A stretch of 64,000 bases of DNA. It comes from an uncultured Barnesiella sp. GTDB taxonomy: Bacteria; Bacteroidota; Bacteroidia; Bacteroidales; Barnesiellaceae_A. Positions 1,259 to 46,372 of this stretch are shown one piece after another (the first letter of the stretch is position 1; the number at the start of each line of letters is the position of its first letter). The position numbers were made by a program, and so were the translations under genes. The stretch covers positions 40,123-104,122 of the forward strand of contig CALUJY010000005.1 of the NCBI GenBank assembly GCA_944321085.1. Reading direction: 5' to 3'. Below the pieces are notes generated by a model, which was not told the DNA's origin, searched no databases, and was given only the letters and a program-made list of their open reading frames with translations.

Positions 1259-3730
1259 ATGAAACGTTTTTTTATCATCCTATTGCTCGGCATAAGTTGC
1301 ATGGCGTATGCCGGAGCGCAACAAGTATGTAAAGTAAAAGGCGTAGTCGCAGACGTAGCGGGCGAAACAATTCCCTATGCTACTGTGAGTGCATCGCAGG
1401 GCGACAAAGTGGTGCGTCGCGTAGCTGCTAATGCCGATGGTGCATTTACGATAGAACTCGACCGAGGCCGGAAGTATCTCCTTACGGTGACTTCTATCGG
1501 TTACACTCCGTTCAATCAGGAGATTACAGTGCCTGCTGCCGCAACCTACGACTTGGGCGGACTGACACTTACCGCCGATACCGAGTTGGCCGAGGTGGTG
1601 GTAGAGGCGCAAAAACCTATCATAAAAAGCGACGCCGAGAAGATAACCTACGACGTAAGTGCCGACCCCGAAGCCGACAACAAAATGCTCATAGATATGA
1701 TGCGCAAGGTGCCTATGGTGACGGTCGATGCCGAGGATAATGTACAGCTCAACGGGTCGAGCGACTTCAAGGTGCTGGTCAACGGCAAAGAGTCGGTCAT
1801 GATGAAAAACAACCTCAAAGAGGTGATGAAGAGTATGCCGGCCAACAGTGTGAAAGATATACAGGTGATTACCAACCCGTCGAGCCGCTACGATGCCGAG
1901 GGTGTAGGTGGCATTATCAACATTGTCACCACGCGCGAAAAGTTGGAAGGCCTTACCGGTTCGGTGACAGGCTATGGCGACATCATGGGCTCGTTTGGCG
2001 GTAATCTTTATCTGGCGACACAGTACAAGCGGTTTACGGCTTCGCTCAATTACAGCGGCGGGCGCTTTGTATCGAAGCAATATTTGAATGCCGAGAGCTA
2101 TAATTATAACAATCCCGATATGTATCTCACGAAAATGTATACCGGCGATGATCTTAATATTGATGGACAATACCATTTCCTGAGTTTCGAGAGTAGTTTC
2201 GAGCTCGATTCGCTCAATCTCTTTACCTTGGGCGTGACGGGCAATATAGGGAACTTCGGTGCAAACGGCAATCTCATGAACGACTCGTATGCGTCGGATG
2301 GTAGGGTAGTTTCGCGCTATATCGACCGCCTGTATCAAGGTAGCATGTTCGGCGGTGTGGCTGCCAACCTCGACTATCAGCACACCTTCGGAAAACCCGG
2401 GCATACGCTTGTGGCATCGTATCGCTACGAGTACAATCCCAACGGCGGGGCATATAGCGACTCTATCATGCTCGACGATGACTCTTTCAATGCTCCTTAT
2501 GGTGGACAGCGCAACGATAACAACTCGTATGCACAGGAACACACGGTGCAGATAGACTATGTGAACCCTATCAACGAGAAACATTCGATAGAAGCGGGCG
2601 TGAAATATATAGGACGTCTCAATCACAGTAACGACGACTATATGATGCTCGATGGCGGAGCGTGGCAGTCGATGAACCAACAACAGACGCTCGACTATAC
2701 GCAACAAATCTTGGCCATATATACCGGTTATGCTTTCAATGCAGGTAATTGGGGTGCGCGCGCCGGAGGTCGCTACGAGGAGACGTGGACCGATGCCATG
2801 CTCGAAAAAGCCGGTACACGGGTCGACTTTGGCAAGCCTTATGGCAACTTTGTGCCCTACGTATCGTTGAATTACAATCTCGACCCCATGCAGAGCCTGC
2901 GTTTGTCGTACACACAGCGTATCAACCGCCCCGGCATCAGTTACCTGTCGCCCTATGAGCGGTGGGTGGGTACGATACAGGTAGAGTATGGTAACCCCGA
3001 CTTGCGTCCCGAGGTGTCGCACTCTATATCGGCGGCCTACTCGCTCTTCAAAGGGGTGTTCAATCTCAACATGGAGTGGAACAGCCGTATTACCAACAAC
3101 AGTATCGAGTCATACGATTTTGTCGAAGCCTCTACCGGTACGATACACAGCACTTACGACAATATAGGTAGGACGCAATCGCATGGTATGTCGCTGTACA
3201 TATCGGGGCAGCTCTCGCCGAAGTTTACCTATTATAGCAATATGAGTGCCTGGTATGTCATATATAAAGCACCCGCGTTGCAACTCGAAAACGACGGTTG
3301 GCAGGCTCATGCCAACCTCGGTATACAGTGGACGGCATGGAAATGCGGTACGATAAGCGTCAACGGCGGCATAGGCAGCCCGTGGGTAGGCTTGCAAAAC
3401 AAAGGAACATTGCCGTGGTATTACTACGGATTGGGCATTACGCAACGCTTCTTCGATGATAAATTGAAGATTACCCTCTCGGGTAACAACCTTTTCAACC
3501 GCTACAATCGCTTTTCCAACATAACGTATGGCGACGGGTTTAAGACCATATCGGAGGGTGGTAATGTGTCTCGCAATGTGCAGCTCAGCGTTACCTTTAC
3601 GTTCGGTAAACTTGATGCGCAAGTGAAGAAGACCAACCGCAGTATCGTCAACAACGACGTCATAGAGGGCGGTTCGCAAGGCGGTATGACCGGCGGTTCA
3701 CAACAAGGCGGCATGACCGGCGGACGATAA
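1259..3730 (+). CDS. outer-membrane beta-barrel family protein with carboxypeptidase-regulatory-like N-domain (TonB-dependent-receptor-like)
   Basis: Signal peptide. N-terminal 'KVKGVVADVAGETIPYATV…TVTSIGYTP' CarbopepD_reg-like domain, a plug-like region, and a long barrel with alternating Y/G/N-rich strands. Gly-rich C-terminal tail GGSQGGMTGGSQQGGMTGG. Confidence 0.85.
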   Translation: MKRFFIILLLGISCMAYAGAQQVCKVKGVVADVAGETIPYATVSASQGDKVVRRVAANADGAFTIELDRGRKYLLTVTSIGYTPFNQEITVPAAATYDLGGLTLTADTELAEVVVEAQKPIIKSDAEKITYDVSADPEADNKMLIDMMRKVPMVTVDAEDNVQLNGSSDFKVLVNGKESVMMKNNLKEVMKSMPANSVKDIQVITNPSSRYDAEGVGGIINIVTTREKLEGLTGSVTGYGDIMGSFGGNLYLATQYKRFTASLNYSGGRFVSKQYLNAESYNYNNPDMYLTKMYTGDDLNIDGQYHFLSFESSFELDSLNLFTLGVTGNIGNFGANGNLMNDSYASDGRVVSRYIDRLYQGSMFGGVAANLDYQHTFGKPGHTLVASYRYEYNPNGGAYSDSIMLDDDSFNAPYGGQRNDNNSYAQEHTVQIDYVNPINEKHSIEAGVKYIGRLNHSNDDYMMLDGGAWQSMNQQQTLDYTQQILAIYTGYAFNAGNWGARAGGRYEETWTDAMLEKAGTRVDFGKPYGNFVPYVSLNYNLDPMQSLRLSYTQRINRPGISYLSPYERWVGTIQVEYGNPDLRPEVSHSISAAYSLFKGVFNLNMEWNSRITNNSIESYDFVEASTGTIHSTYDNIGRTQSHGMSLYISGQLSPKFTYYSNMSAWYVIYKAPALQLENDGWQAHANLGIQWTAWKCGTISVNGGIGSPWVGLQNKGTLPWYYYGLGITQRFFDDKLKITLSGNNLFNRYNRFSNITYGDGFKTISEGGNVSRNVQLSVTFTFGKLDAQVKKTNRSIVNNDVIEGGSQGGMTGGSQQGGMTGGR

Positions 3731-3857
3731 CTTGTCGGATGCGCATCTCCTTGCGATGGCATCGTGCTCTGCAACACAGCTTGTCATTGTGCCATCGTCA
3801 GGCGATGAGATATAGCGAATATTTGATTCTCATACAGTTGCATATTAGTAAACAAAG

Positions 3858-3889
3858 AATATGGCGCGCCCGTGAGGGTGCGCCATATT
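3858..3889. terminator. hairpin between convergent genes
   Basis: AATATGGCGC (3858-3867) is the reverse complement of GCGCCATATT (3880-3889). It lies between the + OM-barrel gene and the - TPR gene. There is no clear U-tract. Confidence 0.4.
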
Positions 3890-3990
3890 GTCATATCGGG
3901 TGATGCGATGGGTCGGTATTCTTCTCTCCGGTAGTAGGTTATAAATTCGGCCTTTGACTTTGAGCGGAAGAGGGTATCCGATAGTGGCTG

Positions 3991-6243
3991 TTATGCCTCA
4001 GCATTGTTTTTCTCACTGGCTTGGTATAGCACTTGGTCGTAGAGGATGGGAATTTCATCGGCCGGGACACCAACATGCAAGAGGTCGGGGATGTCTTGCT
4101 CGAAACTTTGGGCGAAGCGTTTGGTGTTGCCCTCGTCGTTCTTGATGCTTGCGAGATAGAGTTCGAGAGCTTTTTTGATGTTACCCATCGAGAACGCTAC
4201 ATGTCCGGCATTGAGAAAGTCTTGCGCATTGGGATTGCTGTCGAGTATTTGGGTGTAATATTGCCATGCCTGCTCTTTTTTGTTGGCAAGGAACGAGCAC
4301 CAAGCGATAGGCCTTCGGGCTTTGCTACCTTTGGGGTCGAGGTAGTTTACCTTGAAGTAGTATTGTAGGGCTTTGTCGTACTGCTTCGATTCCAAGTAAC
4401 AGTGTCCTATGTTGAGGCTGACCGACAAGTTATCGGGGGCAACTTTGTCGGCACGCAAGAAGTATTCGAGTGCCTTATCGGTCTTTTTCATGTAGCGGTA
4501 ACAAGTAGCGATGTGCCGTAAAGTCCACAAATGGTCAGGCCTTATGAGGTCGGCTTTCAGGTAGTATTCGAGTGCCACCTCATAGTTGTCGGTCGATTGG
4601 AAACAATATCCTGTTTTCTGGTACAGTTCGCTGTCGGTGAAGTTGCTGCCGGTGAGCATGACGAAGATATATGCTGCATCGGTATAGTACTCGTGATTGA
4701 AGAAGTATTCGCCCAACAGGCGCATCAGTTGCTCGTTGGCGGTGATGGGAGCAAGTACCTCGACTTGCATGACTTCTTCGATAGAGATGGAGAAGATGTC
4801 GCGAAATTCGCTACGGCGGGGGAAGAGCTTTGTAAAGCGGTATAAGTCTTGTATGTAGCGGTTCGATATGTTCTCGCGCTCTTTATTCCGCGGGTAGAGT
4901 TCGTCCATGGTCATCTCTTGCATGGCAAGAGTCTCTTCGTTGAGTTGCGATGTCAGCATTTGGCGTTGTGCCTCGGGTACCTGCATCAACGACAGACAGA
5001 AAGAGTATTTGTCGGAGTTGCACAGGAACTCCGAAGAGTTTATCACTTGGGCGAGGTATTTGTTTTGCTCATTGTCTCCGAAGAGCGAAGCCAAAGCCGA
5101 GTGTTGCTGTATGAAAGGCAGGAACCAGTTGGCTATTTCGTTGAAGAATTGGAACCCTTTCAGATGGGCGAATGTGCCCATAAAGACGTCGGCGCCCTCC
5201 ATTTGCAGGTCGTTTATTTCGCGCAGGCTGTCGGCAATGCCCGAGTTGTCGATGATTTCCTGCCACTCGGGGTTGCGTTCGAGCGATTCGAGGTCGTTCA
5301 AGGCATCGTCTTCTTTTATCTTTTTATAAAGCGCAGGGCTTATTTTCATCATTTGCGGCAATACCTCTTCATTGATTTTGCGGGCTATCTTTTCGGTGTC
5401 GCGGCTGCGAATGAATTGCAGCAGTATGTTGCGCATGTCGGTGATGAAGCGGTTGTCGTCGAGCAAGAGGCTGAGGCGGATGTGCAGTTTCTCGTAGAGC
5501 GGCAGCCGGTGGTGGTATTGTTGCAAGACAAAGAAAAGTCCGCACAAAGCTCTCATCTGTACCTCGACGCTGTTGTGGTGCAGGTATGCGTCGATGAGAA
5601 TGTTGGTTTTCTCTTCGTCGAAAGCATGTAACAGGTTCAGGGTCAGCGCCGATACCGTGAGAGCCGCTACGGGTGATGAGATGCGTTGCGGTTGCAGTGC
5701 GGCCGATAGCGTGGCGCAATCTTCGGCCGACGCCGGAAAGTTGGTCCATACGCGGTCGAAAAAGTCACATACTGCACGTTCGGCATTTATGCGCATTTTG
5801 TCTTTTTCCTTGTCGATATATAAATCGGACATAGACAAAGCGGACAGAGCCGTTTCGAGTTCTGCGAAAATCTTTGCGAGACTTTTCCCGTCGTTTTGTG
5901 CCACTCTCTTCTTGCCGTAATAGAGTGTCATGGAGTCGCGGGTGAGCAACTTTTCGCACACGGTGTCGGTGAGCCTATATACCGATACGATGAGGTGGTT
6001 ATATACCTGTATGCGCTCGGGGTCTTTTACGCCGTCGAGCATATACTGTATCATGTAACGGTAGGATGTTTCTATTGTGGCGAGTTCCTCGTCGATATTC
6101 CACTCTTGCAACCGGTCGGTGAGTCTTTTCAACTCGATAAATGCTTTCTGCAAGTGCTTTCGGTGAAGAGATTCGTATATTTTGTGTTGCCTGTTGGCGA
6201 TGTCGTGAGATAGCATAATCGTATGGTTTAGACTGTATAACAA
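3991..6243 (-). CDS. tetratricopeptide-repeat (TPR) protein
   Basis: The C-terminal third has repeated TPR-like units (…ALEYYLKADLIRPDH…, ALEYFLRADKVAPDN…, ALQYYFKVNYLDPKG…, AWQYYTQILDSNPN…). The long ORF has coding-like composition. Confidence 0.8.
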   Translation of the reverse strand: MLYSLNHTIMLSHDIANRQHKIYESLHRKHLQKAFIELKRLTDRLQEWNIDEELATIETSYRYMIQYMLDGVKDPERIQVYNHLIVSVYRLTDTVCEKLLTRDSMTLYYGKKRVAQNDGKSLAKIFAELETALSALSMSDLYIDKEKDKMRINAERAVCDFFDRVWTNFPASAEDCATLSAALQPQRISSPVAALTVSALTLNLLHAFDEEKTNILIDAYLHHNSVEVQMRALCGLFFVLQQYHHRLPLYEKLHIRLSLLLDDNRFITDMRNILLQFIRSRDTEKIARKINEEVLPQMMKISPALYKKIKEDDALNDLESLERNPEWQEIIDNSGIADSLREINDLQMEGADVFMGTFAHLKGFQFFNEIANWFLPFIQQHSALASLFGDNEQNKYLAQVINSSEFLCNSDKYSFCLSLMQVPEAQRQMLTSQLNEETLAMQEMTMDELYPRNKERENISNRYIQDLYRFTKLFPRRSEFRDIFSISIEEVMQVEVLAPITANEQLMRLLGEYFFNHEYYTDAAYIFVMLTGSNFTDSELYQKTGYCFQSTDNYEVALEYYLKADLIRPDHLWTLRHIATCYRYMKKTDKALEYFLRADKVAPDNLSVSLNIGHCYLESKQYDKALQYYFKVNYLDPKGSKARRPIAWCSFLANKKEQAWQYYTQILDSNPNAQDFLNAGHVAFSMGNIKKALELYLASIKNDEGNTKRFAQSFEQDIPDLLHVGVPADEIPILYDQVLYQASEKNNAEA

Positions 6244-38690: not shown

Positions 38691-39154
38691 TATAGATAAT
38701 GTCTTATTTGAGAGATGTAACATGTAAAATAATATGGAATATTTAGTATGGCCAATGCTTCGGCCTAGTTTGAGTTGAAAAATTCGTTCCCGTTTGCCTG
38801 CGCACTTACTTTTACGTATATTTGTATGAAAAAGATCTAAGTGATTGAATATGAGTTGCAGCTACCAATTCATAGTAGTAATAGGTTGTGAATTAGTTAT
38901 CCGCTGTTTTATTCTTCTGCACGTTGCGTAACCTTCAAAGAACTTTTCGTATGCAAAGTAGATTTAAATGTCTATGTTGAAGTAAAAATCCAGCTTTTTA
39001 AGCTTCGCAGGCAAGTTTTTCAGTAAAAGCTAATACCATATTTTTAAGCTTAGTGTTCTCTTTTTTGTGATTTTCTTGCCAGATAGCCATATATTTACAG
39101 ATGAAGCTGAAAGTGAAAATAAATCAATATCTTTGAGCATTATAAGTTGGTGAT

Positions 39155-39361
39155 ATGAAAGAACTAAACCGATTGAACGTTGTATTGTGTGAAAAAAAAG
39201 CGTACAAGCAAGAGGCTGGCAGGACAAATGAATCTCAATCTGTCTACTGTGTCAAAGTGGTGTACCCATACATCTCAGCCGGATTTGGGCAGCCATTAAC
39301 TATCGCAAACCTAAAATCCAACTGTGCGACCATTGTGTTCGCAACCGATGGCTACTTTTGA
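39155..39361 (+). pseudogene. XRE-type HTH gene, frameshifted
   Basis: Frame 0 gives MKELNRLNVVLCEKK. After the A8 run (39192-39199), the +1 frame continues RTSKRLAGQMNLNLSTVSKWCTHTSQPDLGSH*, the classic small Bacteroidales HTH pattern (…KWLAEQ…TVSKWC.N..QP.L). The reading frame is broken at the homopolymer and ends prematurely. Confidence 0.5.
39353..39360 (+). promoter_or_regulatory. TAnnTTTG motif upstream of the WYL gene
   Basis: TACTTTTG lies 17 nt upstream of the ATG at 39377. Confidence 0.35.
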
Positions 39362-39376
39362 AAAAAATATTAAGAT

Positions 39377-40411
39377 ATGCCTACAAATAAGAATGCTTTA
39401 ACGAGATACAAATATCTGGATGAAATGTTGTCTGACAGACATCATTTCTATGACATTCATGACCTGACAGAGAAATGCAATGAGAAACTTATTGATGCAG
39501 GATTTCCCGAAGTATCTCAACGTTGTATTGAAAAAGATATAAACTATTTGGAATATGATCCATTCTATGCCGAAATAGAACGTTATAGGGTAAATAGTCG
39601 TCGGTGTATTAGGTATAAAGACCCCTCATTTACAATCTTTCGTAAAGAACTGAGTGAAGAGGAGCGTAATTTGATATTGGAGGTTCTTAATACAATAGGA
39701 CAATTTGACGGCCTGCCCCATTTTGAGTGGCTCGATAGTTTCAAAACCGGACTTGGTCTGAAGAAACGTCCTCGAATCATTAGCTTTAGCAATAACCCAT
39801 ATTTGCAGAATTCCAACTTGTTAGGTGTATTGTTCGACAATATATCAAACCAAGTTGTCGTAGGGTTGGAGTATCATACTTTTGCGGATAAGGGAAATAG
39901 AAGAATCATTATTCATCCCTATTTGCTTAAACAATATAATAATAGATGGTACTTGATTGGTGCAGCGGATAATGATGCCAAAATCCTCAATTTCGCTCTC
40001 GACAGAATTGATGCCGTGACAGCCCTTCCTGAAATGAAATACAAACCATGTAATGAAGACTTGGCAGAGCGATTCGAAGATATTATAGGAGTAACCCTGT
40101 ATGAGGACAGGAATATTGAACATATTTTGTTTTGGGTGAGTAATCAATCAAAGGACTACATGGAAACCAAGCCTATTCATGGTTCACAATGTCAATATAA
40201 AGGTGAAAAAGAAGAAGAATTCCGTAGACAATACCCATCTCTTTATGAGGGTGCGTTTTTCTCAATAGATTGCATCCCTAACTATGAGTTGATCCGTGAA
40301 CTTTCTTCCTTTGGCAAAGAACTTATAGTGTTGTCGCCGTCATACATACAAGACGATATTTTTAACCGTATTAAATCAATGCTCGATATTTATTCTATAG
40401 TGCGAATATAG
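39377..40411 (+). CDS. WYL-domain transcriptional regulator (wHTH-WYL-WCX architecture)
   Basis: N-terminal 'NKNALTRYKYLDEML…' wHTH-like region. Central 'IIIHPYLLKQYNNRWYLIGA…ILNFALDRIDAV' is a WYL-domain signature. C-terminal '…ELIRELSSFGKELIVLSPSYIQDDIFNRI' resembles a WCX extension. Confidence 0.85.
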   Translation: MPTNKNALTRYKYLDEMLSDRHHFYDIHDLTEKCNEKLIDAGFPEVSQRCIEKDINYLEYDPFYAEIERYRVNSRRCIRYKDPSFTIFRKELSEEERNLILEVLNTIGQFDGLPHFEWLDSFKTGLGLKKRPRIISFSNNPYLQNSNLLGVLFDNISNQVVVGLEYHTFADKGNRRIIIHPYLLKQYNNRWYLIGAADNDAKILNFALDRIDAVTALPEMKYKPCNEDLAERFEDIIGVTLYEDRNIEHILFWVSNQSKDYMETKPIHGSQCQYKGEKEEEFRRQYPSLYEGAFFSIDCIPNYELIRELSSFGKELIVLSPSYIQDDIFNRIKSMLDIYSIVRI

Positions 40412-40428
40412 AGTTCGTAATCATAAAC

Positions 40429-40436
40429 TAACTTTG
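40429..40436 (+). promoter_or_regulatory. TAnnTTTG motif upstream of the helicase gene
   Basis: TAACTTTG lies 21 nt upstream of the ATG at 40457, in the 45-nt gap after the WYL gene. Confidence 0.35.
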
Positions 40437-40456: not shown

Positions 40457-42082
40457 ATGAGATTAGAAAAATGGTTTATATCAAACTTGGATGACTCGCA
40501 ACGTCAAATTATCATCCGGGATCCAAATGAAAACCTTATTGTTCAAGGTTCTGCAGGTAGTGGAAAAACTAACTTAGCTATACATCGGGCAGTACAAGCA
40601 AGTGCATTCAGCGATTCATACGCTATTGTTGTTTATACAATGGCGTTGAAACGTATGGTTGCATATGGATTAGAGGCATTAGATCTTGATAAAGAAAAAA
40701 TTGTATATGATTGGGCTTGGGAACATCGTGGTTTTGACTTAATTGGTGATGTCTATTGTCGTGGAAATATTAAGTCTGTAAATTCACATCCAGTCTATTT
40801 CCTAATTCAAGATGAAAAAGTTTACAAATTCGAAAGTTCAAGATTAGGCAGTTATACTGTTAATGCTAATGGTGTAAAAATTGATAGTAAATTCAAACGA
40901 TTAGAGACAAGCATCGATCCTTCGTTTATAAGGGATATGGGATCATATTCTATTTCTACCAATGTGGAAATTATTGATGGAAATAATTTTATACAACAAG
41001 GTGAAATTTATTATTTCATTGAAATATCAAACAAAAATGTCTTTATTGTCCAAAATGGTGAAATTCGCCAATTTGAAAAAGTACAATCGTACGATCAGGG
41101 CAAAAAAGATTACCCTAATGGCTTATTGGTAAGTATTGATTTCGCAGATTGGGTAGCTGAAACCTATTACCGAAACTTTGGAAGACGTATTTCCTGGTTT
41201 AGAGAAATTCCAGTTGAATTTGGGATCGATATTACGAATCCAGAAATGGTACTCATTCCAAGTGGTACACTATTTAGAAAAGCCGAGAGCAAAATTGATT
41301 ATCTTATCGTTGATGAAGCACAGGATTTTGATGTTTCAGACTACCAGTATCGTTTTCTTCCGAAGGTTAATAAAAGTATATCTCTTTTTGGAGACTCTGC
41401 TCAAAAAATCTATAATAGAGGTGCCAGTATTGATGATATAACTGCTGCTCTACGCTATAGAAGATTGTTCCTCAAATACAATTATCGCTTGCCCAAATCA
41501 ATAGCTAAGGTTGCGCAAGATATCGTATATCCATCAATAGACCTTTTATCTGATAATATGAAAGATGGCGGAAATAGTGACTATCCGCAGTACCCCAAAC
41601 CCGTTATTCAAAAATTTGAGTCTAAAGATAAGGAATTAGAGGCAATTCTTAACAAAATTCGTTTGGAAGATTTGGATGATGTTGCCATCCTCGTACCTTT
41701 AGAAAGTGATGTTAAATATGTACATGATTTCTTCTCGAAAAATGGTGTGCAAACTCAAGTCCTTTATAGAACAGGAAAAATTGCACCATACCGCACAATA
41801 AACACTCTTGATTTCACTAATAACGATTTGCCTTGTATACTTACATATCATGCGGCCAAAGGTACCGAATTTGACAATGTGTTTGTTCCATTTGCTAATA
41901 GTGCAGATATACCCGACAGGAACGCATTTTATGTTGCATGTACTCGTGCTTCACATAGCCTAACAATTTCTTTTTCAGCAAAGAAAATTACAGAATATTT
42001 AACAAATGTAAATCCTGATGCCATAGTTGAGCGTAATGTTCCTGACGATGCTTGGATTGGTACAAGACCCATCAAGAAATAA
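40457..42082 (+). CDS. superfamily-1 (UvrD/Rep-like) helicase/ATPase with a ~190-aa insertion
   Basis: Walker A 'GSAGSGKTN', motif II 'DYLIVDEAQDF', 'NYRLPKSI' (motif IV-like), 'LTYHAAKGTEFDNVFVPF' and 'YVACTRASHSLTISF' (motifs V/VI). A long insertion between Walker A and B contains two similar segments (VYFLIQDEKVYKFES / IYYFIEISNKNVFIVQNGEIRQFEK). Confidence 0.85.
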   Translation: MRLEKWFISNLDDSQRQIIIRDPNENLIVQGSAGSGKTNLAIHRAVQASAFSDSYAIVVYTMALKRMVAYGLEALDLDKEKIVYDWAWEHRGFDLIGDVYCRGNIKSVNSHPVYFLIQDEKVYKFESSRLGSYTVNANGVKIDSKFKRLETSIDPSFIRDMGSYSISTNVEIIDGNNFIQQGEIYYFIEISNKNVFIVQNGEIRQFEKVQSYDQGKKDYPNGLLVSIDFADWVAETYYRNFGRRISWFREIPVEFGIDITNPEMVLIPSGTLFRKAESKIDYLIVDEAQDFDVSDYQYRFLPKVNKSISLFGDSAQKIYNRGASIDDITAALRYRRLFLKYNYRLPKSIAKVAQDIVYPSIDLLSDNMKDGGNSDYPQYPKPVIQKFESKDKELEAILNKIRLEDLDDVAILVPLESDVKYVHDFFSKNGVQTQVLYRTGKIAPYRTINTLDFTNNDLPCILTYHAAKGTEFDNVFVPFANSADIPDRNAFYVACTRASHSLTISFSAKKITEYLTNVNPDAIVERNVPDDAWIGTRPIKK

Positions 42083-42091
42083 TTTTTAAAT

Positions 42092-43861
42092 ATGAAATAC
42101 TGGATAATTATAGACTCATGGAATCTTATGGAGACTTTTACAACAGAAAGTCTTTCACCACATATATTCTATTTGAAAAGAGCTTTCGGTAATGACTTGA
42201 CTAGATACATAAGTAAAGATGGAGAGCTTTTCAATAATCTTATTCTTTATAAAGAAGAACCTTCATCTCAATTTGCTATTGAATTAGATGATTCTCTATT
42301 CGACAAGTCTCTTTTGGCAGCATATAAGAAAGGAGAGACTTTCCTATATCCAAAAACGGTTTATTACCAAAAGGGTAAGGTTAGGTTCCGATTTAAAAAT
42401 CAAGACTCAATAAAAGCTTTTATCGCAGAATCAAAGATAATTTTTGAGGTTAAGACAATAGATAAATACTCTAGTGATTTCTTTATTGAAACTGATACGC
42501 CAAAGAAGGCTCCGTCCATAAATGGAAACGACTCTTTCCCATTTGATATTAATGAATACATTTGGGTTGATAATCTCTTTAATTCAGTTAAAGGAGGTAT
42601 CGTATCATATTTATGTGGCCTAAAGACATCTACAAGTTTGGAAAATCAGTCTTTAATACTTTCATTGACCTCTCTTAAAAATATGATTGCAGGATTAAAT
42701 ACTGTAGTTATGATGGGGGAAGAAAACGAGATAGACTATTCTCAGTATAAGATGTCATTGCTTAAAACGAAGAACGAATTTTTGCGATCTCCTTTTAAAA
42801 GTAAGATAAACTTATTCGAGGTGCTTAAACATATACTAGATGAAATAATATCACTTTCTACCCTTAGATTGGAGAAAGTTGCGGAACAGAAATCGCCTTC
42901 GTATAAACTCAAAATTGAACGACTGAAGAAGAAAAAAGCAGAATATGAAGATTTGCTATATAAACTGGAAGATTCAAACATAGGGAAGATAAAAGAAGAA
43001 TTGAACCGCATCAAAGAGCAAGAGGCAAAAATGGGTGAACTTGAGGGTAAAAAACGTAGATTCTTCCCAAAAGGTTCTCGTGAATATGAAAGGAAGAAGG
43101 AACTTAAAAATCAGATTATTAAATATAAGGAAAAAAATAGTGAATATAAAACAGTTTACAGAGAATATAAATCGATAGAAGCTTTATTGTCATATTCTGT
43201 TGTTGGAGTTACTCAATACGATGCCACTATCTCTTCTTTGTTTATTAGGTTTAGCGATAACATAAATGACATCCTTAAATTATTCAAATCAAGCCTTGTT
43301 AAAGATAACAAAGAAACGGATCTTCTTCCAAATTTAACAGTTTTAAAGAATGACGTAAAAATTGAAATAGAGGATGTTTCTTTAGAGGAAATAGTTCTCT
43401 ATAATATTATCTTCCATTTAATAGTATTTAATTCTAACGAAAAGTATAATGTCATCTCTGACAGTAAAATTGTTGAGTTAGTAGAACGTGTTGGTAAAGA
43501 ATTTGGTGAAAAAGAGATTTCAAAGTCTGTAATCGGAAACCAAATAATGAATACATTACGGACATTCTGGATGTATAAGAAACAAAAAACTGATTCTTTT
43601 GACATTCCAACTGACCTTCCACTTTTACAGGCTATCATGTCCTTTTTTATAAAGCCAAGGGGGTTTGACCAAATTGATAGATTTATGTTAAACAGAGGAT
43701 ATCAATTGAAAAAATACGCATATATGCTATGGGGAGCTATTGTTGGATATGCTTCCATTCCCAAAACATTAACTAACATAATTAATGATAATATTAAAGA
43801 GGATTTGTTGGATAGTTATCTTTCCTCTATTTATAGGTCGTTAGAAAATTGTAACATATAA
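42092..43861 (+). CDS. hypothetical 589-aa protein (central coiled-coil; no recognisable catalytic motif)
   Basis: Starts 9 nt after the helicase stop. Residues ~270-360 are a Lys/Glu-rich heptad-like segment (KLKIERLKKKKAEYEDLLYKLE…IKEELNRIKEQEAKMGELEGKK…). I saw no P-loop, nuclease or TM signature. Confidence 0.75.
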   Translation: MKYWIIIDSWNLMETFTTESLSPHIFYLKRAFGNDLTRYISKDGELFNNLILYKEEPSSQFAIELDDSLFDKSLLAAYKKGETFLYPKTVYYQKGKVRFRFKNQDSIKAFIAESKIIFEVKTIDKYSSDFFIETDTPKKAPSINGNDSFPFDINEYIWVDNLFNSVKGGIVSYLCGLKTSTSLENQSLILSLTSLKNMIAGLNTVVMMGEENEIDYSQYKMSLLKTKNEFLRSPFKSKINLFEVLKHILDEIISLSTLRLEKVAEQKSPSYKLKIERLKKKKAEYEDLLYKLEDSNIGKIKEELNRIKEQEAKMGELEGKKRRFFPKGSREYERKKELKNQIIKYKEKNSEYKTVYREYKSIEALLSYSVVGVTQYDATISSLFIRFSDNINDILKLFKSSLVKDNKETDLLPNLTVLKNDVKIEIEDVSLEEIVLYNIIFHLIVFNSNEKYNVISDSKIVELVERVGKEFGEKEISKSVIGNQIMNTLRTFWMYKKQKTDSFDIPTDLPLLQAIMSFFIKPRGFDQIDRFMLNRGYQLKKYAYMLWGAIVGYASIPKTLTNIINDNIKEDLLDSYLSSIYRSLENCNI

Positions 43862-43912
43862 AAAGAGAGTAGAAAAATTTAATATACGAACATAGAGTAC
43901 GTATATATGTAG

Positions 43913-43920
43913 TACTTTTG
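43913..43920 (+). promoter_or_regulatory. TAnnTTTG motif upstream of the retron ncRNA
   Basis: TACTTTTG lies 16 nt before the a1 repeat. The same motif precedes the three tRNAs and several genes in this window. Confidence 0.4.
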
Positions 43921-43936
43921 TAAAAGATAACAAGAT

Positions 43937-44163
43937 AAGGCGGTCTTTGGTAAGTTTGGAGTCTGAAACGAAATTTTGAACGTTGTCCGGCGTATTTGTC
44001 CGGATGTCTCCCTGTCCTTCGGAATCTCGGAGATAAACAATGTTAGTACGTTATAAAACAATACAGCACCATGTAAACTGTAATAGGTGAGATGAGTTGT
44101 ATTTAGATGTTTGGAATATACATAAAGAAAAGAAGTTTCAGCCTAAACCTCAGAGACCGCCTT
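43937..44163 (+). ncRNA. candidate retron msr-msd non-coding RNA
   Basis: AAGGCGGTCT (43937-43946) is the exact reverse complement of AGACCGCCTT (44154-44163). With G:U pairs the helix reaches 14 bp. The ~200 nt between them are ORF-free and contain local hairpins. a2 ends 18 nt before the RT start codon. Confidence 0.6.
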
Positions 44164-44181: not shown

Positions 44182-45492
44182 ATGGATAAAACGGAAATAG
44201 CACAAATCGCATCACAGATGTCAACAAGAGACGAACTGTTGGCACTGCTCAATCGTATCAAGCAAGATGAGATGCGCGAATTGGGCTTTGATGCAGACAA
44301 GTTTTATCCATTTACGATGAAGCAACTTCTGTACTATTGCAACCCCAATCATGTATTCCATCGCTATCGTCAATTCAATATACAGAAGAAGTCTGGCGGT
44401 TTTCGCCAGATTACAACACCGCGTAATCGGAGTTTCATGATGCTTTTGCATTCACTGAATGAGATTTTGAAAGCTGTTTACATACCCTCAAAATATACTA
44501 TGGGGTTTACAGCGAAACGTTCAGTCGTGACAAATGCAGCAATCCATAAAAGTCAGAACTATGTATTCAACATTGACTTGAAAGATTTCTTCCCAAGTAT
44601 AGAGCAGGGACGAGTGATGAAACGTCTGACTTTGGCCCCCTTTAACTTTCCGCCACAAATAGCATTATTGATTTCGGGTCTTTGTTCTATGAGGGTTAAA
44701 CGAGACCAACCCATAGAAAGCAAACGACATGATTTGGACAAACAATATATGTACGTGCTGCCACAGGGTGCCCCGACATCACCAATCATTACCAACATGA
44801 TTTGCGATACGCTAGACCACAAACTGGCAGGATTGGCAAAGCGTTTTGGATTACGTTATACGCGATATGCAGACGACATCACGTTCAGCTCTATGCATTA
44901 TGTCTATTCTAAAAATGGTGAGTTTATAAAGGAACTTGCCCGTATAATACAGGCTCAGGGTTTTGTGATAAATGAAACCAAAACGAGATTACAGAAACTT
45001 GGAAGCCGTCAGGAGGTAACGGGGATTATTGTTAGTGATAAACTGAATGTTAGCAAGAAATATGTTCGTGAAATCAGAAGTTTGCTTTATATATGGGATA
45101 GGTATGGGTACTCGGCAGCAATGTCAAGATTTTTCCCAAAGTATAAAGCGGAAAAAGGACATATAAAGAAAGGCAATCCAGATTTGGCTAATGTGCTCGA
45201 CGGGAAACTTATGTATTTGAAGATGGTAAAAGGTGATGCCGATTCTGTATATGTGAGACTTTATACGAAATTTCAAGAACTTGTCAATAGAGATTCCAGT
45301 TCGGATAAGACCAATTCTTATGGTATTACCTACATTGAGTCTGTTCCTTTTCTGAAATTTGAAAAAGAAAAAAATACAGAGATTACTATTTATCATAAAG
45401 CCGATAAAGTAACAGTTCTTGATAAACCAATAATTAATATAGATGAGTTAAATAATGACTTAGATATACTATTGAATATACCAAATGGATGA
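44182..45492 (+). CDS. retron-type reverse transcriptase
   Basis: 'FNIQKKSGGFRQITTP', 'NAAIH' (retron NAxxH), 'FNIDLKDFFPSI', 'LPQGAPTSPIITN', 'YTRYADDITFS' (YxDD) and 'RQEVTGIIV' (retron VTG motif). The ~120-aa C-terminal extension beyond the thumb is unassigned. Confidence 0.9.
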   Translation: MDKTEIAQIASQMSTRDELLALLNRIKQDEMRELGFDADKFYPFTMKQLLYYCNPNHVFHRYRQFNIQKKSGGFRQITTPRNRSFMMLLHSLNEILKAVYIPSKYTMGFTAKRSVVTNAAIHKSQNYVFNIDLKDFFPSIEQGRVMKRLTLAPFNFPPQIALLISGLCSMRVKRDQPIESKRHDLDKQYMYVLPQGAPTSPIITNMICDTLDHKLAGLAKRFGLRYTRYADDITFSSMHYVYSKNGEFIKELARIIQAQGFVINETKTRLQKLGSRQEVTGIIVSDKLNVSKKYVREIRSLLYIWDRYGYSAAMSRFFPKYKAEKGHIKKGNPDLANVLDGKLMYLKMVKGDADSVYVRLYTKFQELVNRDSSSDKTNSYGITYIESVPFLKFEKEKNTEITIYHKADKVTVLDKPIINIDELNNDLDILLNIPNG

Positions 45493-46372
45493 GAAAATAC
45501 GGGTCACTATTAATAAGATAAGACTTTTAGCAGAACAAAATTCGGAATTTTCTAAGGAAATGCGGAAACTGTTTGGAAAAACAGCTTCTGCATTTGATGT
45601 GAGCATAAATTCAAGTCTTTCTTCAGATATTATAGCGATTAGATCTGCCTTAGAAATAAGAGCTAATGCAAGTATCACATATAACTTCGTCAAAGATCAA
45701 AGACTACGTGACCAACTTATCATAGATAACCTAAGAATGGAAAACGCAGCATTAAATTTGCAGTGTATAGAAGCCGAGCGTTTTTATGTATTCTGTGTAA
45801 ATGCTTTTTATCAAGTTGAAAATATTATCAACTATTTTTATCATTCGGCTTTCCCAGAAATTGAAGTTTTATTGAAAGAAATTGAGGGAGCTACACAAGA
45901 TGAAAGAAATGATTTTAAATTCAGACGTACAGGAAAAGAACAGAATGTTAGCAGTATTCCTGTTGCCCATAAAATTAATGCCTTTTTCAATGCCTATTTG
46001 CCAGGAGAAGGTCCTTTGAAATGGTCTATTGGAACTCTCAGACAAGTTAGAAATGAAGGAGAGCATAGATGCGATGTCATTAGAGAAGAAAAAGAGGGAA
46101 GCAACAATATGTATAAATTCTTCAAATGCAAGACCTTTGATAATGTAAGGAATGACCTTATCAAGTTTGTCAGTGCTATTGAGTATAATCTTAGCAAAAA
46201 AGAAGAATTAGATTCTGTAATAACGTCAAAATTGCCTAGTATTTGTTATGTGTTGTTGAGAGGAAATAGTGTACAACTTCCCAACATACTATTTGAAAAA
46301 GTTAAACACCTTAATAAAGGTGATAAGGTTGTTCTAACTGTTATTGGTGATAAAATAATTGATGTGAGCTAA
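45485..46372 (+). CDS. RT-coupled 295-aa protein with HEPN-type RNxxxH motif (putative retron effector)
   Basis: The start overlaps the RT stop (ATGGATGA, 8-nt overlap). 'LRQVRNEGEHRCD' (R189-N-E-G-E-H194, nt 46049-46066) fits the R[NHK]xxxH HEPN signature and is preceded by predicted helices (ERFYVFCVNAFYQVENIINYFY). The assignment rests on this single motif. Confidence 0.55.
   Translation: MDEKIRVTINKIRLLAEQNSEFSKEMRKLFGKTASAFDVSINSSLSSDIIAIRSALEIRANASITYNFVKDQRLRDQLIIDNLRMENAALNLQCIEAERFYVFCVNAFYQVENIINYFYHSAFPEIEVLLKEIEGATQDERNDFKFRRTGKEQNVSSIPVAHKINAFFNAYLPGEGPLKWSIGTLRQVRNEGEHRCDVIREEKEGSNNMYKFFKCKTFDNVRNDLIKFVSAIEYNLSKKEELDSVITSKLPSICYVLLRGNSVQLPNILFEKVKHLNKGDKVVLTVIGDKIIDVS

Follow-up and report, generated by a model that had tools for sequence, protein, structure and literature searches.

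The window, by which we mean the whole 64-kb stretch of DNA analysed, carries on its forward strand a candidate msr-msd noncoding RNA, a reverse transcriptase (RT) gene and, overlapping the end of the latter, an ORF of 295 aa (Table 1). A WYL-domain gene and two further genes precede them. The retron copy lies within an island of low GC content that spans about 38.7-46.7 kb.

Table 1. Features of the retron locus and its upstream genes (positions in the window)
Feature	Position	Strand	Basis
Cassette copy before WYL gene	39327-39360 (palindrome 39327-39341, -7 box 39353-39360)	+	Pattern search
WYL-domain protein, 344 aa (WYL + WCX)	39377-40411	+	Pfam WYL 3.9e-11, PADLOC WYL 3e-20
Cassette copy before helicase gene	40403-40436 (palindrome 40403-40417, -7 box 40429-40436)	+	Pattern search
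Variable cargo between WYL gene and retron	40457-43861	+	Pfam, PADLOC, locus comparison
UvrD/GajB-like SF1 helicase, 541 aa	40457-42082	+	Pfam UvrD_C, UvrD-helicase; PADLOC GajB 8e-21
589-aa protein	42092-43861	+	Zero matches in Pfam, PADLOC, NCBIfam
Operator-like palindrome and -7 box before ncRNA	43887-43920	+	Sequence, inverted-repeat scan
msr-msd ncRNA candidate	43937-44163	+	Inverted repeats, RNA fold, covariation
Retron RT, 436 aa, type XI-like (Mestre clade 8)	44182-45492	+	Pfam, PADLOC, NCBIfam, motifs
Effector ORF, 295 aa	45485-46372	+	Start overlaps RT stop by 8 nt
N-terminal helical region, ORF residues 1-60	45485-45664	+	AlphaFold
Conserved all-alpha core, residues 61-237, putative HEPN domain	45665-46195	+	Core-only AlphaFold model, invariant residues
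R189-N190-E-G-E-H194, Rx4H motif, putative catalytic site	46049-46066	+	Read from sequence
C-terminal small beta-barrel, residues 239-295	46199-46369	+	AlphaFold2, Foldseek

Judged by its motifs, the gene upstream of the ORF is a retron RT. Its translation contains NAAIH, YADD and VTG (in RQEVTGIIV); the NAxxH motif of region X and the VTG triplet of region Y define retron RTs (PMC7736814). The protein matches Pfam RVT_1 (1.5e-19) and several NCBIfam retron models, the latter each below its own family cut-off, and it extends ~65 aa past the RT core as a C-terminal tail. Its top PADLOC model is RT-Protease_XI (2.4e-100), followed by RT-TIR_XII and then RT-Toprim_I-C. Pfam and PADLOC find no protease in either the RT or the ORF, and no protease, TIR or Toprim domain is fused to the RT. 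We rejected a canonical type XI retron because the RT-Protease_XI model is matched over its RT part only (model positions 20-331 of 510) and the protease is absent.

The ncRNA candidate is bounded by an a1 arm at 43937-43950 (AAGGCGGTCTTTGG) and an a2 arm at 44150-44163 (TCAGAGACCGCCTT), both located by the inverted-repeat scan. Its closing helix continues via 43960-43969 / 44135-44144, internal hairpins are present, and the region folds with a z-score of -3.7. An a1/a2 pair ending at most 46 nt from the RT start occurs in 47/53 related loci, as against 4/52 and 4/57 in controls. The arm sequences vary between lineages, and in the consensus structure of 14 relatives 14 of the 31 pairs stay paired despite changes on both sides. 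The ncRNA matches no Rfam family. The conserved G that ends a1 (43949) is a candidate branching G for msDNA. Together with the RT motifs and models, this msr-msd-like ncRNA bears out the retron context proposed in an initial annotation of the window.

An ORF family tied to a retron reverse transcriptase

The start codon of the ORF (ATG, 45485-45487) lies ahead of the RT stop (TGA, 45490-45492) within an 8-nt overlap (ATGGATGA), confirming the overlap noted in the initial annotation. Searches of Pfam, PADLOC and NCBIfam give zero matches to the ORF, even with relaxed thresholds. Its family comprises 712 proteins, which form 249 clusters at 50% identity and come nearly all from Bacteroidota. We scanned species-level genomes with ORF peptides as the only seeds, and 52 of the loci had usable upstream sequence. 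In all 52 of these, a retron RT lies directly upstream of the ORF homologue, and at 13 of them the two are fused in frame. Co-occurrence with retron RTs across genomes, which the initial annotation had proposed to check, is thus strict.

The close junction between the two genes is conserved too. Where the start codon could be aligned (19 split loci), the distance from RT stop to ORF start ranges from -11 to +5 nt, and the same 8-nt overlap recurs in 8 of the 19. The identities of RT and ORF to their counterparts in the window covary (Spearman 0.85, n=49). In the fused forms, RT residue ~369 leads directly to ORF residue ~61, so that ORF residues 1-60 are missing; in the split forms these N-terminal helices may dock onto the RT tail. 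Searches of plasmid and phage collections found no ORF homologue. The commonest homologue, P0033, is 75% identical; at least 1000 contigs carry it, and the assembly collection lists it in 2191 blocks. Its surroundings are an integrative mobilisable element that also encodes a relaxase, a VapE-like primase and an integrase. The 295-aa gene is real, and it is the fixed partner of a retron RT that is common among gut Bacteroidota; some bacteria have it as a domain fused to that RT.

Predicted fold and assignment of the ORF core

Full-length AlphaFold2 modelling of the ORF gives a mean pLDDT of 90, and the core modelled separately reaches 95. The N-terminal region consists of three helices, 3-18, 20-31 and 43-55, the last two of them joined by a linker (32-42) modelled with low confidence. 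Within the core, helix 72-90 bears a DNLRMEN motif, and helix 96-122 bears Q110, E112 and N116. The stretch ERFYVFCVNAFYQVENIINYFY, read earlier as helix-like heptads, falls in this second, confidently predicted helix. After a variable, poorly conserved insert (residues 126-171), helix 176-191 terminates in R189-N190 and the next helix begins with H194. The R[NHK]xxxH motif singled out in the initial annotation (LRQVRNEGEHRCD) is indeed encoded where it had been placed, with R189 at 46049-46051 and H194 at 46064-46066.

The last ~70 aa had been described as beta-rich, and five strands are predicted there by AlphaFold2 (239-250, 253-258, 261-264, 281-287 and 290-294). They form a small barrel that, in Foldseek searches of the PDB, resembles the N-terminal domains of EF-P and eIF5A as well as S1-like domains. 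Alignments to the EF-P and eIF5A domains cover ~62 residues with rmsd 2.2-3.2, probability 1.0 and E about 0.08-0.7. The barrel occurs in 36 of the 128 core-complete representatives, hence as an optional accessory domain, and it may bind nucleic acid.

A single R[NHK]xxxH in 295 aa would be expected by chance at a rough estimate of a few per cent. Conservation takes the motif beyond chance, unlike a lone match: R189, N190 and H194 are invariant in 52/52 aligned sequences at identities down to 22%, and R, N and H are retained in 131 of 132 motif-covering representatives of the 50%-identity clusters. The conservation of R189 and H194 on which the initial annotation depended is therefore borne out. 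M85, Q110 and E112 are likewise retained in every representative that covers them.

HEPN domains are characterised by an Rx4-6H motif in which the arginine is followed by N, D or H, all polar (PMC3710099), and R189-N190-x3-H194 has this form. In the secondary structure of the model, to which this comparison is confined, the layout also matches that HEPN description, with R-N ending one helix and H beginning the next. The invariant E112 in the second long helix and the variable insert between helices 2 and 3 agree with the same source (PMC3710099), while the conserved glutamate here stands in an ExxxN rather than an Ex3[KR] context.

Profile searches lean in the same direction at sub-threshold scores. 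Of the 128 members, 21 match DUF4145, with a best E of 1.5e-4; this is the most matched Pfam family, ahead of HEPN_Swt1 (5) and HEPN_LA2681 (4), which are followed by HEPN_Apea (2), Ribonuc_2-5A (KEN) (1) and DUF3644 (1). These matches are not independent of the motif, as they fall largely on the same helix-plus-motif region. An hhalign comparison with the pEK499_p136 HEPN family (PF18736) is weak (P = 0.014, probability about 3%); its alignment is motif-to-motif, LRxVRNxxxHRC with LIxxxRNSVAHF, and 0/60 column shuffles reach its score. Foldseek of the pLDDT-95 core against the PDB returned no HEPN structure and nothing significant. In the viral library BFVD, the top match is an MAE_28990/18760-like HEPN protein (E 0.45, probability 0.75, TM 0.43, rmsd 10).

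Links between HEPN families are notoriously difficult to recover by sequence or structure search (PMC3710099). Since Foldseek gave no significant match, we regard the HEPN call as likely rather than proven: motif position, helix layout and the Pfam trend uphold the earlier identification, the hhalign match is weak, and the structure search did not confirm the fold. Three findings had been named that would speak against that identification (a non-HEPN fold, lack of R/H conservation, no linkage to RTs), and none of them emerged. The core of the ORF is most likely a new divergent family of HEPN RNase domains, closest to DUF4145.

Putative regulatory cassettes and relation to known systems

Shortly before the ncRNA lies a palindrome at 43887-43901 (CGAACATAGAGTACG), nested in a longer one with 10-nt arms (43882-43906) and followed by a Bacteroidetes-type -7 box, TAnnTTTG, at 43913-43920 (TACTTTTG). 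Palindrome and box in this combination are confined to three sites in the 64-kb window, each heading a transcription unit, and recur about 50 times in related loci compared with once in shuffles. A TAnnTTTG box stands 11-26 nt ahead of a1 in 14/14 related loci, and an equivalent cassette precedes the WYL gene in loci L001, L010, L013, L016, L017, L025, L026 and L031. Going by their sequence and position, the cassettes may work as operator plus promoter.

The WYL protein, whose WCX part is a weak Pfam match below threshold, is likely a transcriptional regulator of the island. Its homologues are found near the retron in 31/57 loci, all within the split type; counting only split-type loci whose upstream sequence extends 2 kb or more, the figure is 31 of 34. 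None occurs at the 13 fused loci. WYL regulators of this kind co-localise with defence islands (PMC9122601). The cargo following the WYL gene is rarely shared, with homologues of the helicase in only 4 loci and of the 589-aa protein in only 3. Other loci fill the slot with unrelated genes, at split-type loci including PLD nuclease, Fic, PIF1-like helicase, AlkB-like and DprA-like proteins. The helicase and the 589-aa protein are probably a separate, co-regulated module outside the retron proper. Related loci show neither a conserved second partner besides WYL nor a conserved winged-helix partner.

The closest description of this lineage is that of the type XI-like retrons termed TXI_C2like in a preprint by Toro of May 2026 (bioRxiv 10.64898/2026.05.14.725207). 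Common to both are a protease-less type XI-like RT (NAxxH, VTG), Bacteroidota hosts, nearby WYL proteins and, upstream, an ncRNA closed by a1/a2 arms around internal stem-loops; we assign membership by these shared features. The commonest accessory cluster of TXI_C2like, AC006 (26 loci), had no Pfam or structural match there, was left unassigned and was named a priority for functional study (bioRxiv 10.64898/2026.05.14.725207). Our comparison of AC006 with the ORF family is by description, because the preprint gives no AC006 sequences. The preprint presents WYL as the characteristic accessory module and nowhere mentions HEPN, whereas in our loci the R-N-x3-H protein, translationally coupled downstream or fused, is the partner that never varies, the fused forms lack WYL, and there is an additional shared operator-promoter cassette.

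A stand-alone HEPN effector has already been described for type IX retrons (Mestre 2020, PMC7736814), with mechanistic preprints in July 2026. The initial annotation, which named no such partner among the retron effectors described so far, is outdated on this point, and its suggestion of a new retron subtype has to be narrowed, since the RT lineage matches TXI_C2like. With the lineage and a HEPN partner both on record, only the effector assignment is new. Type IX systems such as Retron-Kva2 consist of an RT, an ncRNA, a HEPN-like protein and a winged-helix (WH) protein, and so share a HEPN-type effector with the present system. They have a clade 7 RT, place HEPN and overlapping WH (HTH12) genes upstream of the retron module and require the WH partner (PMC7736814). 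Their HEPN protein lacks the canonical H of Rx4-6H (PMC7736814), while the motif here is canonical. We rejected type IX as the class of the present retron because the ORF is downstream or fused, has no PADLOC match and lacks a conserved WH partner. RT_IX scored ~150 bits on the homologous RT of L001 (~328 bits for XI) and is not among the best 25 PADLOC models for the RT in the window.

By PADLOC and NCBIfam, the closest RT relatives are Eco2/type I-C, XI and XII of clade 8, which share the minimal architecture of an effector right after the RT or fused to its C-terminus. The present system differs in an effector unrelated to Toprim, protease or TIR, in having both split and fused forms, and in the WYL gene of the split forms. 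AbiA also couples an RT to HEPN (RT fused to HEPN_AbiA_CTD) in an abortive-infection context. Its RT is of the Abi/UG class and performs untemplated, protein-primed DNA synthesis, with no msr-msd ncRNA. AbiA was rejected on the grounds that retron models score far above Drt/UG models (PADLOC, NCBIfam) and an a1/a2 ncRNA is present; the AbiA-CTD is absent among the 25 most-matched Pfam families of the ORF family. The HEPN families known from defence islands, DUF4145 among them (Anantharaman et al. 2013), have R-N-x3-H, an all-alpha domain and the defence context in common with the ORF. The ORF family differs in that all its members stay below the Pfam gathering score and in two invariant motifs of its own, DNLRMEN and QxExxxN; an exclusive association with retron RTs is not described for those families.

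Proposed mechanism and alternatives

We propose, with a probability of roughly 0.6, that the protein encoded by the ORF, most likely a divergent HEPN RNase, serves a type XI-like (clade 8) Bacteroidota retron as its dedicated effector. By analogy with characterised retrons, it is most likely a toxin held in check by the retron DNA. The Bacteroidetes-type promoter just before a1 would drive a single transcript of msr-msd, RT and ORF, the latter two presumably coupled in translation. As expected of a retron, the msd part of the folded ncRNA would be converted to msDNA by the RT. The RT-msDNA complex may then bind the HEPN protein and hold its R-N-x3-H site inactive, as Eco2 and the type IX retron Kva2 would suggest. 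In Eco2, a clade 8 RT-Toprim, msDNA cages the nuclease until phage DenB degrades the msDNA, whereupon tRNA is cut. In Kva2 the WH protein and msDNA together enclose the HEPN site until a phage exonuclease activates it (July 2026 preprint), so that msDNA-dependent caging with activation by a phage nuclease, as in type IX, offers the best mechanistic template. Contact between RT-msDNA and HEPN would be made in cis in the fused forms and, in the split forms, through the RT C-terminal tail and the N-terminal helices of the ORF. A phage factor that degrades or alters msDNA would free the HEPN domain to cut host tRNA, rRNA or mRNA and thereby abort infection. At split-type loci, the WYL protein probably represses itself, the cargo cassette and the retron, presumably by binding the shared palindromic operator at each promoter.

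The assignment of the core leaves room for a different enzyme. The ORF might be a retron effector with a novel helical fold, for instance another nuclease or a nucleotide-modifying enzyme, in which R-N-x3-H arose convergently and the active site is formed by D81/N82/E86/Q110/E112/N116. The generic HEPN description offers no equivalent of the strongly conserved DNLRMEN and QxExxxN motifs, which could, as far as sequence tells, mark a chemistry other than HEPN; the confident core model that finds no HEPN structure in the PDB, the hhalign probability of about 3% to a true HEPN family and the uniformly sub-threshold Pfam matches would fit such an enzyme too. Against this stand the three most-matched Pfam families, all of them HEPN and accompanied by several others, the motif itself, which has the canonical polar residue next to its R and falls at the junction of helices 3 and 4, the conserved acidic residue in helix 2 and the HEPN protein at the top of the BFVD matches, in a superfamily whose members are hard to connect. 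We consider a non-HEPN enzyme unlikely.

Two further readings accept a HEPN RNase and differ in its role. It might serve the retron itself, for instance in msr-msd transcript processing or in shortening the RNA part of the msDNA, and the lethal or defensive output would then fall to the variable genes that lie between WYL gene and retron, or to host factors. Maturation of msDNA in known retrons requires RNase activity, and a defence-like variable cassette with UvrD-like helicase, PLD nuclease, Fic or PIF1-like helicase adjoins many split-type retrons under the same operator-promoter. However, the content of that cassette is unrelated between loci, and the 13 fused RT-HEPN loci have neither WYL gene nor shared cassette, which argues that RT and HEPN are a self-sufficient unit; moreover, in every characterised retron the effector role falls to the partner that is conserved or to the domain that is fused (PMC7736814; Eco2). 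We find such a service role very improbable. Equally improbable to us is a reading in which addiction comes first and the RT-ncRNA-ORF unit, as a toxin-antitoxin module, chiefly keeps the mobile element or island that carries it stable. The integrative mobilisable element of P0033, the low-GC island around the copy in the window and the frequency of HEPN toxins in toxin-antitoxin systems (PMC3710099) would suit such a role, but every retron type tested so far protects against phages, the related I-C and the HEPN-bearing type IX among them, and the neighbourhood is defence-like, with its WYL regulator and helicase, PLD and Fic cargo. Addiction and anti-phage roles are in any case mutually compatible.

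A bolder extension of the HEPN effector reading would make the Bacteroidota TXI_C2like lineage a distinct RT-HEPN retron type, split and fused. In its split forms the WYL protein would go beyond repression: it would sense msDNA or phage-derived nucleic acid and co-activate, through one operator, the retron and an exchangeable cassette (helicase with the 589-aa protein, PLD, Fic, AlkB-like, DprA-like and others). The WYL protein would then be analogous to WYL1 of Cas13d or to the winged-helix partner of type IX. We hold this extension to be doubtful; if true, gut Bacteroidales would possess a defence island of modular build, operated by a single switch.

The dedicated HEPN effector that we favour would most likely put a name to the component left unassigned in the 2026 survey of this retron lineage, the only paper known to treat it. 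The lineage is very common in gut Bacteroidaceae, and its effector is annotated everywhere as a hypothetical protein. Assigning it to HEPN leads to a testable model of RNase-based abortive infection with R189, N190, H194 and E112 as key residues, and the natural split and fused versions provide a ready comparison for the way RT-msDNA restrains a nuclease. The shared operator-promoter cassette offers a concrete handle on the switching of Bacteroidales defence islands, and the compact Bacteroides RT-ncRNA units may interest developers of retron-based editing in gut commensals. The principle known from Eco2 with its Toprim and from type IX with its non-canonical HEPN would thereby extend to another RT clade and to a HEPN whose motif is canonical.

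The ORF family and its reverse transcriptase partner

The start codon of the 295-aa ORF lies 5 nt ahead of the TGA of the retron reverse transcriptase (RT) gene, with ATGGATGA as the junction string, and the peptide LRQVRNEGEHRCD carries the motif residues R189 (codon 46049-46051) and H194 (codon 46064-46066). The initial annotation had described a reading frame overlapping the RT stop, an R189/H194 motif at nt 46049-46066 and a helical body with a beta-rich end. The ORF listing and the raw sequence return the frame, its overlap and the motif, and the AlphaFold2 model of the full protein returns the layout (residues 1-237 all-helical, residues 239-295 a small beta domain), so that this observation is confirmed.

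Features of the retron locus and of the ORF protein (window positions, or residues of the ORF protein)
Feature	Position	Strand	Source or remark
16-nt element, two copies 46 nt apart	38990-39051		upstream of the HTH remnant
Remnant of XRE-type HTH gene	39157-39299		
Cassette copy before WYL gene	39327-39360		sequence pattern
WYL/WCX protein	39377-40411		upstream of retron
Cassette copy before helicase	40403-40436		sequence pattern
WYL-to-retron slot	40457-43861		
UvrD/GajB-like helicase	40457-42082		upstream of retron
589-aa protein	42092-43861		upstream of retron; no match in Pfam, PADLOC or NCBIfam
Cassette copy before retron ncRNA	43887-43920		sequence pattern
a1 arm AAGGCGGTCTTTGG	43937-43950	+	long-range inverted repeat closing the gap
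TTACATAAAGAAAAG box	44116-44130		alignment columns ~297-311
a2 arm TCAGAGACCGCCTT	44150-44163	+	pairs with a1
Upstream RT gene	44182-45492	+	436 aa; TGA 45490-45492
ORF	45485-46372	+	295 aa; ORF listing and raw sequence
Helix	residues 72-90		AlphaFold models
Long helix with invariant E112	residues 96-122		AlphaFold models
Poorly conserved segment	residues 126-171		AlphaFold models and alignment
Helix ending in R189-N190	residues 176-191		AlphaFold models
Break, next helix beginning at H194, more short helices	to residue 236		AlphaFold models

The ORF has no match in Pfam, PADLOC (E up to 1) or NCBIfam (E up to 0.1), and searches of PDB sequences by phmmer and profile hmmsearch gave only chance matches, to repebodies and a designed protein. 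Scanned against PADLOC, 128 family members returned chiefly the RT matches of members fused to an RT, and nothing on the effector. In a large protein collection the ORF has 712 homologues, forming 249 clusters at 50% identity; those with a name are called 'hypothetical protein' and come mostly from Bacteroidaceae. No homologue was found by tblastn in plasmid and phage collections.

A scan of one genome per GTDB species with peptide patterns from the ORF only, drawn from a 20-sequence alignment (a 52-sequence alignment offered no conserved stretch), yielded 55 loci, nearly all in Bacteroidota (Bacteroidales, Flavobacteriales, Chitinophagales, Cytophagales and Sphingobacteriales). A retron RT, sought by tblastn with the window RT, lies directly upstream on the same strand in 52/55 loci, and in the remaining three the ORF match sits at the very start of its contig. 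Where RT and ORF are split into separate genes and the start codon could be aligned (19 loci), the distance from RT stop to ORF start ranges from -11 to +5 nt. Thirteen loci hold a single RT-ORF frame in which RT residue ~369 is joined to ORF residue ~61; these fused loci belong mostly to Flavobacteriaceae, with single Cyclobacteriaceae, Draconibacterium and Bacteroidales genomes, and RT fusions also occur among the representative proteins P0254, P0257 and P0264. The identities of RT and ORF to their window copies are correlated over loci (Spearman 0.85, n = 49). Linkage, tight spacing, fusions and correlated identity therefore mark the ORF as the specific partner of the RT, and the association across genomes anticipated for this family is firmly supported. 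In the fusion P0257 (784 aa), an extra ~300 aa at the C-terminus match the C-terminal portion of HamB, the Hachiman helicase (PADLOC 1.8e-60, residues 470-775).

The 436-aa RT matches Pfam RVT_1 (1.5e-19), and its best PADLOC models are RT-Protease_XI (2.4e-100), followed by RT-TIR_XII, RT-Toprim_I-C and RT_XIII. The fusion models align over their RT part alone (positions 20-331 of 510), indicating that the window RT is without a protease, TIR or Toprim domain. In NCBIfam, retron models far outscore Drt/UG models, all of them below family cut-offs. The translation reads NAAIH, YADD and VTG, and NAxxH and VTG are the retron-specific RT motifs (PMC7736814). Among related loci, the RT gene looks broken in L028 (a short ORF) and in L045 and L049 (tblastn matches in two pieces), and some copies may be decaying.

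The 320-nt gap 5' of the RT folds more stably than its shuffles (z = -3.7) and is closed by the a1/a2 inverted repeat. When the strongest long-range inverted repeat was sought within 420 nt 5' of the RT in related loci, a retron geometry, defined by an arm separation of 140-300 nt and a second arm whose end lies at most 46 nt from the RT start, was found in 47/53 distinct regions, as against 4/52 controls from RT coding sequence and 4/57 from shuffled sequence. The arms vary by lineage, for example AAAGACACCAG/CTGGTGTCTTT versus AAAGATACCAG/CTGGTATCTTT, and GAAGTGCCAAC/GTTGGCACTTC, so that the helix as a whole shows covariation. For 14 closer relatives, the RNAalifold consensus recovers the a1/a2 helix together with internal hairpins, and 14/31 of its pairs keep pairing despite changes on both sides. 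No known retron ncRNA family of Rfam was matched, the one match being a chance CRISPR-DR match inside the ORF (E 0.8). Just 5' of the a2-proximal stem, 14 related ncRNAs share the near-invariant TTACATAAAGAAAAG box, a candidate msd site for RT recognition or for priming.

HEPN-like features of the ORF protein

Across the 52-sequence alignment R189, N190 and H194 do not vary, and they are kept in 131/132 representatives covering the site. M85, Q110 and E112 are kept in all representatives that cover them, L78, D81, N82, N116 and R195 in 96-99%, and E86, C104 and K163 in 92-93%. Published HEPN domains are four-helix bundles in which the R is usually followed by N, D or H, helix 2 has a conserved acidic residue, a variable insert separates helices 2 and 3, and helix 4 is frequently kinked (Anantharaman et al., PMC3710099). 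The AlphaFold2 models, made for the full protein from the 52-sequence alignment (mean pLDDT 90) and for the core alone (pLDDT 95), fit this layout in the predicted order of helices as well as in the motif.

Profile comparisons are suggestive. When Pfam was searched with each of 128 family members separately (E up to 1), the most-matched families were DUF4145 (21/128 members, best E 1.5e-4), HEPN_Swt1 (5) and HEPN_LA2681 (4), with further matches to HEPN_Apea (2), the RNase L/Ire1 KEN domain (1) and DUF3644 (1), all of which are HEPN families. For a direct comparison by hhalign, the bona fide HEPN family pEK499_p136 (PF18736) was taken from its type plasmid and its homologues were collected. 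The top alignment sets LRxVRNxxxHRC of the ORF family on LIxxxRNSVAHF of PF18736 with P 0.014, a score reached by 0/60 column-shuffled queries, at an HHsuite probability of only 3%; hhalign against the single pEK499_p136 sequence, or in global mode, was uninformative beyond the motif.

In structure searches with the full model, Foldseek matched PDB entries through the C-terminal barrel only, and the core was modelled alone because this barrel dominated the results; the core-only model gave nothing significant against the PDB. Against a viral library, the top match of the core was a 'MAE-28990/MAE-18760-like HEPN domain-containing protein' (E 0.45, TM 0.43), the only match there with probability >0.25. 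Of the HEPN-type assignment made in the initial annotation, the motif and the helix layout stand, whereas a significant PDB match by Foldseek was not obtained and the profile matches are weak. The fold and profile evidence is suggestive, and with the motif and layout we consider it quite probable that the ORF core is a HEPN domain.

Fused forms lack residues 1-60 of the ORF, which comprise helices and a disordered linker, and they also lack the tail of ~65 residues that the split RT carries. Both pieces are natural candidates for a non-covalent contact between RT and effector. Residues 239-295 form a small barrel like the EF-P/eIF5A N-terminal domain and S1-like domains (~62 residues, rmsd 2.2-3.2) and possibly bind RNA. 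Since the barrel is found in only 36/128 core-complete representatives, it is an optional accessory.

The low-GC island and its shared cassette

The retron lies in a low-GC stretch of ~38.7-46.7 kb (GC 0.30-0.38 vs 0.45-0.53 in the flanks); direct repeats around it were only short, chance-like pairs, and no attachment sites were identified. When the neighbours of 57 loci were clustered, the WYL protein was the sole other recurrent family (31 loci), present in 31/34 of the split-type loci that extend 2 kb or more upstream, and in 0/13 fused loci. Between WYL gene and retron lies a slot (3214-6197 in the related locus L001) whose genes are unrelated from genome to genome: the helicase and 589-aa protein of the window, a HAD phosphatase with a DprA-like protein, WG-repeat proteins, an AlkB-like (2OG) dioxygenase, a PLD nuclease, a PIF1-like helicase or a Fic protein. 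Such variety suggests a cargo position whose content can be exchanged. The helicase and 589-aa genes can be rejected as obligate parts of the retron, with homologues in only 4 and 3 loci, respectively. In a few related loci the 589-aa protein co-occurs with GajB-like helicase homologues, and the two may be an uncharacterised helicase-partnered defence pair.

The loci L001-L008 of P0033, the commonest Bacteroidaceae homologue, sit on an integrative mobilisable element with a relaxase, a NikA-like gene, a VapE-like primase and two integrase genes, whose accessory end consists of the WYL gene, the cargo and the retron. In related loci, an XRE-type HTH gene (81 aa in L001) precedes the WYL gene. 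The window has a remnant of it that stops early, its ATG frame (from 39157) differing from the HTH-homologous frame (~39190-39299) near an A-run at ~39194-39201. A pseudogene is the probable reading, with a frameshift from sequencing or phase variation as a possible alternative. The 16-nt element upstream of the remnant contains the palindrome AGCTT-TTT-AAGCT.

The 64-kb window has exactly three copies of a cassette in which the palindrome CGAAyATAGrGTTCG is followed after ~10 nt by a Bacteroidetes -7 box TAnnTTTG (palindromes written as CGAACATAGAGTTCG). Related Bacteroidales loci (L001, L010, L013-L017, L023-L027, L030 and L031) carry it at the same three position types, with ~50 occurrences vs 1 in shuffled sequence, and the -7 box lies 11-26 nt before a1 in 14/14 close relatives. 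A scan for sigma-70 promoters and terminators was uninformative, falling below shuffle expectation, as would be expected of Bacteroidetes promoters. The cassette resembles an operator through which one regulator, most plausibly the WYL protein, would govern three transcription units: its own gene, the cargo and the retron. The cassette is also present on the short 'cleanbin' contigs of L027 (labelled Lactococcus garvieae) and L030 (labelled Lachnospiraceae), whose RTs are 66% identical to the window RT. These are probably mis-binned Bacteroidales contigs and no evidence for the ORF family in Bacillota.

Relation to known retrons and a proposed mechanism

The initial annotation listed no stand-alone HEPN partner of retrons and suggested that this may be a new subtype. 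The former is outdated, as type IX retrons have such a partner (PMC7736814), but the present system does not belong with them: the type IX HEPN lacks the motif H, whereas the ORF family has a canonical R-N-x3-H, and type IX differs in RT clade and gene order and has a WH partner, which is absent here. Membership in AbiA is likewise rejected, AbiA having an Abi/UG-class RT and no ncRNA. Canonical type XI, the best PADLOC model for the RT, is rejected because the system has no protease. The system is a type XI-like retron and not a wholly new subtype: the lineage matches TXI_C2like, the type XI-like lineage of a May 2026 preprint (bioRxiv 10.64898/2026.05.14.725207), in being exclusively from Bacteroidota and in its WYL neighbours and a1/a2 ncRNA. 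The preprint does not mention HEPN; the variable C-terminal extension of TXI_C2like probably corresponds to the fused form of the ORF family, and its accessory cluster AC006 probably to the split form. No description of an RT-HEPN retron or of a type XIV retron was found in the literature searched, in which the effector assignment and the shared operator also appear unreported. The finding on the ORF is real and is not a categorically new system, but a type XI-like retron with a likely HEPN effector of canonical motif, split or fused.

Two solved relatives lead us to infer how such an effector might be held in check. Eco2 is an RT-Toprim fusion of clade 8 whose nuclease is caged by a branched msDNA scaffold; once phage DenB has degraded the msDNA, tRNAs are cut. 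In Kva2, a type IX retron, the WH protein and msDNA together enclose the HEPN site, which a phage exonuclease activates. In hand for the present system are the retron RT motifs, the conserved ncRNA, the obligate coupling or fusion of the ORF and the invariant R-N-x3-H in a HEPN-like layout. By analogy, msDNA would be made and the RT-msDNA complex would keep the HEPN domain inactive, until phage activity removing or altering the msDNA frees it to cleave RNA and arrest the cell. Taken together, we put a probability of roughly 0.6 on the ORF being a dedicated HEPN-type effector of a type XI-like retron, gated by RT-msDNA.
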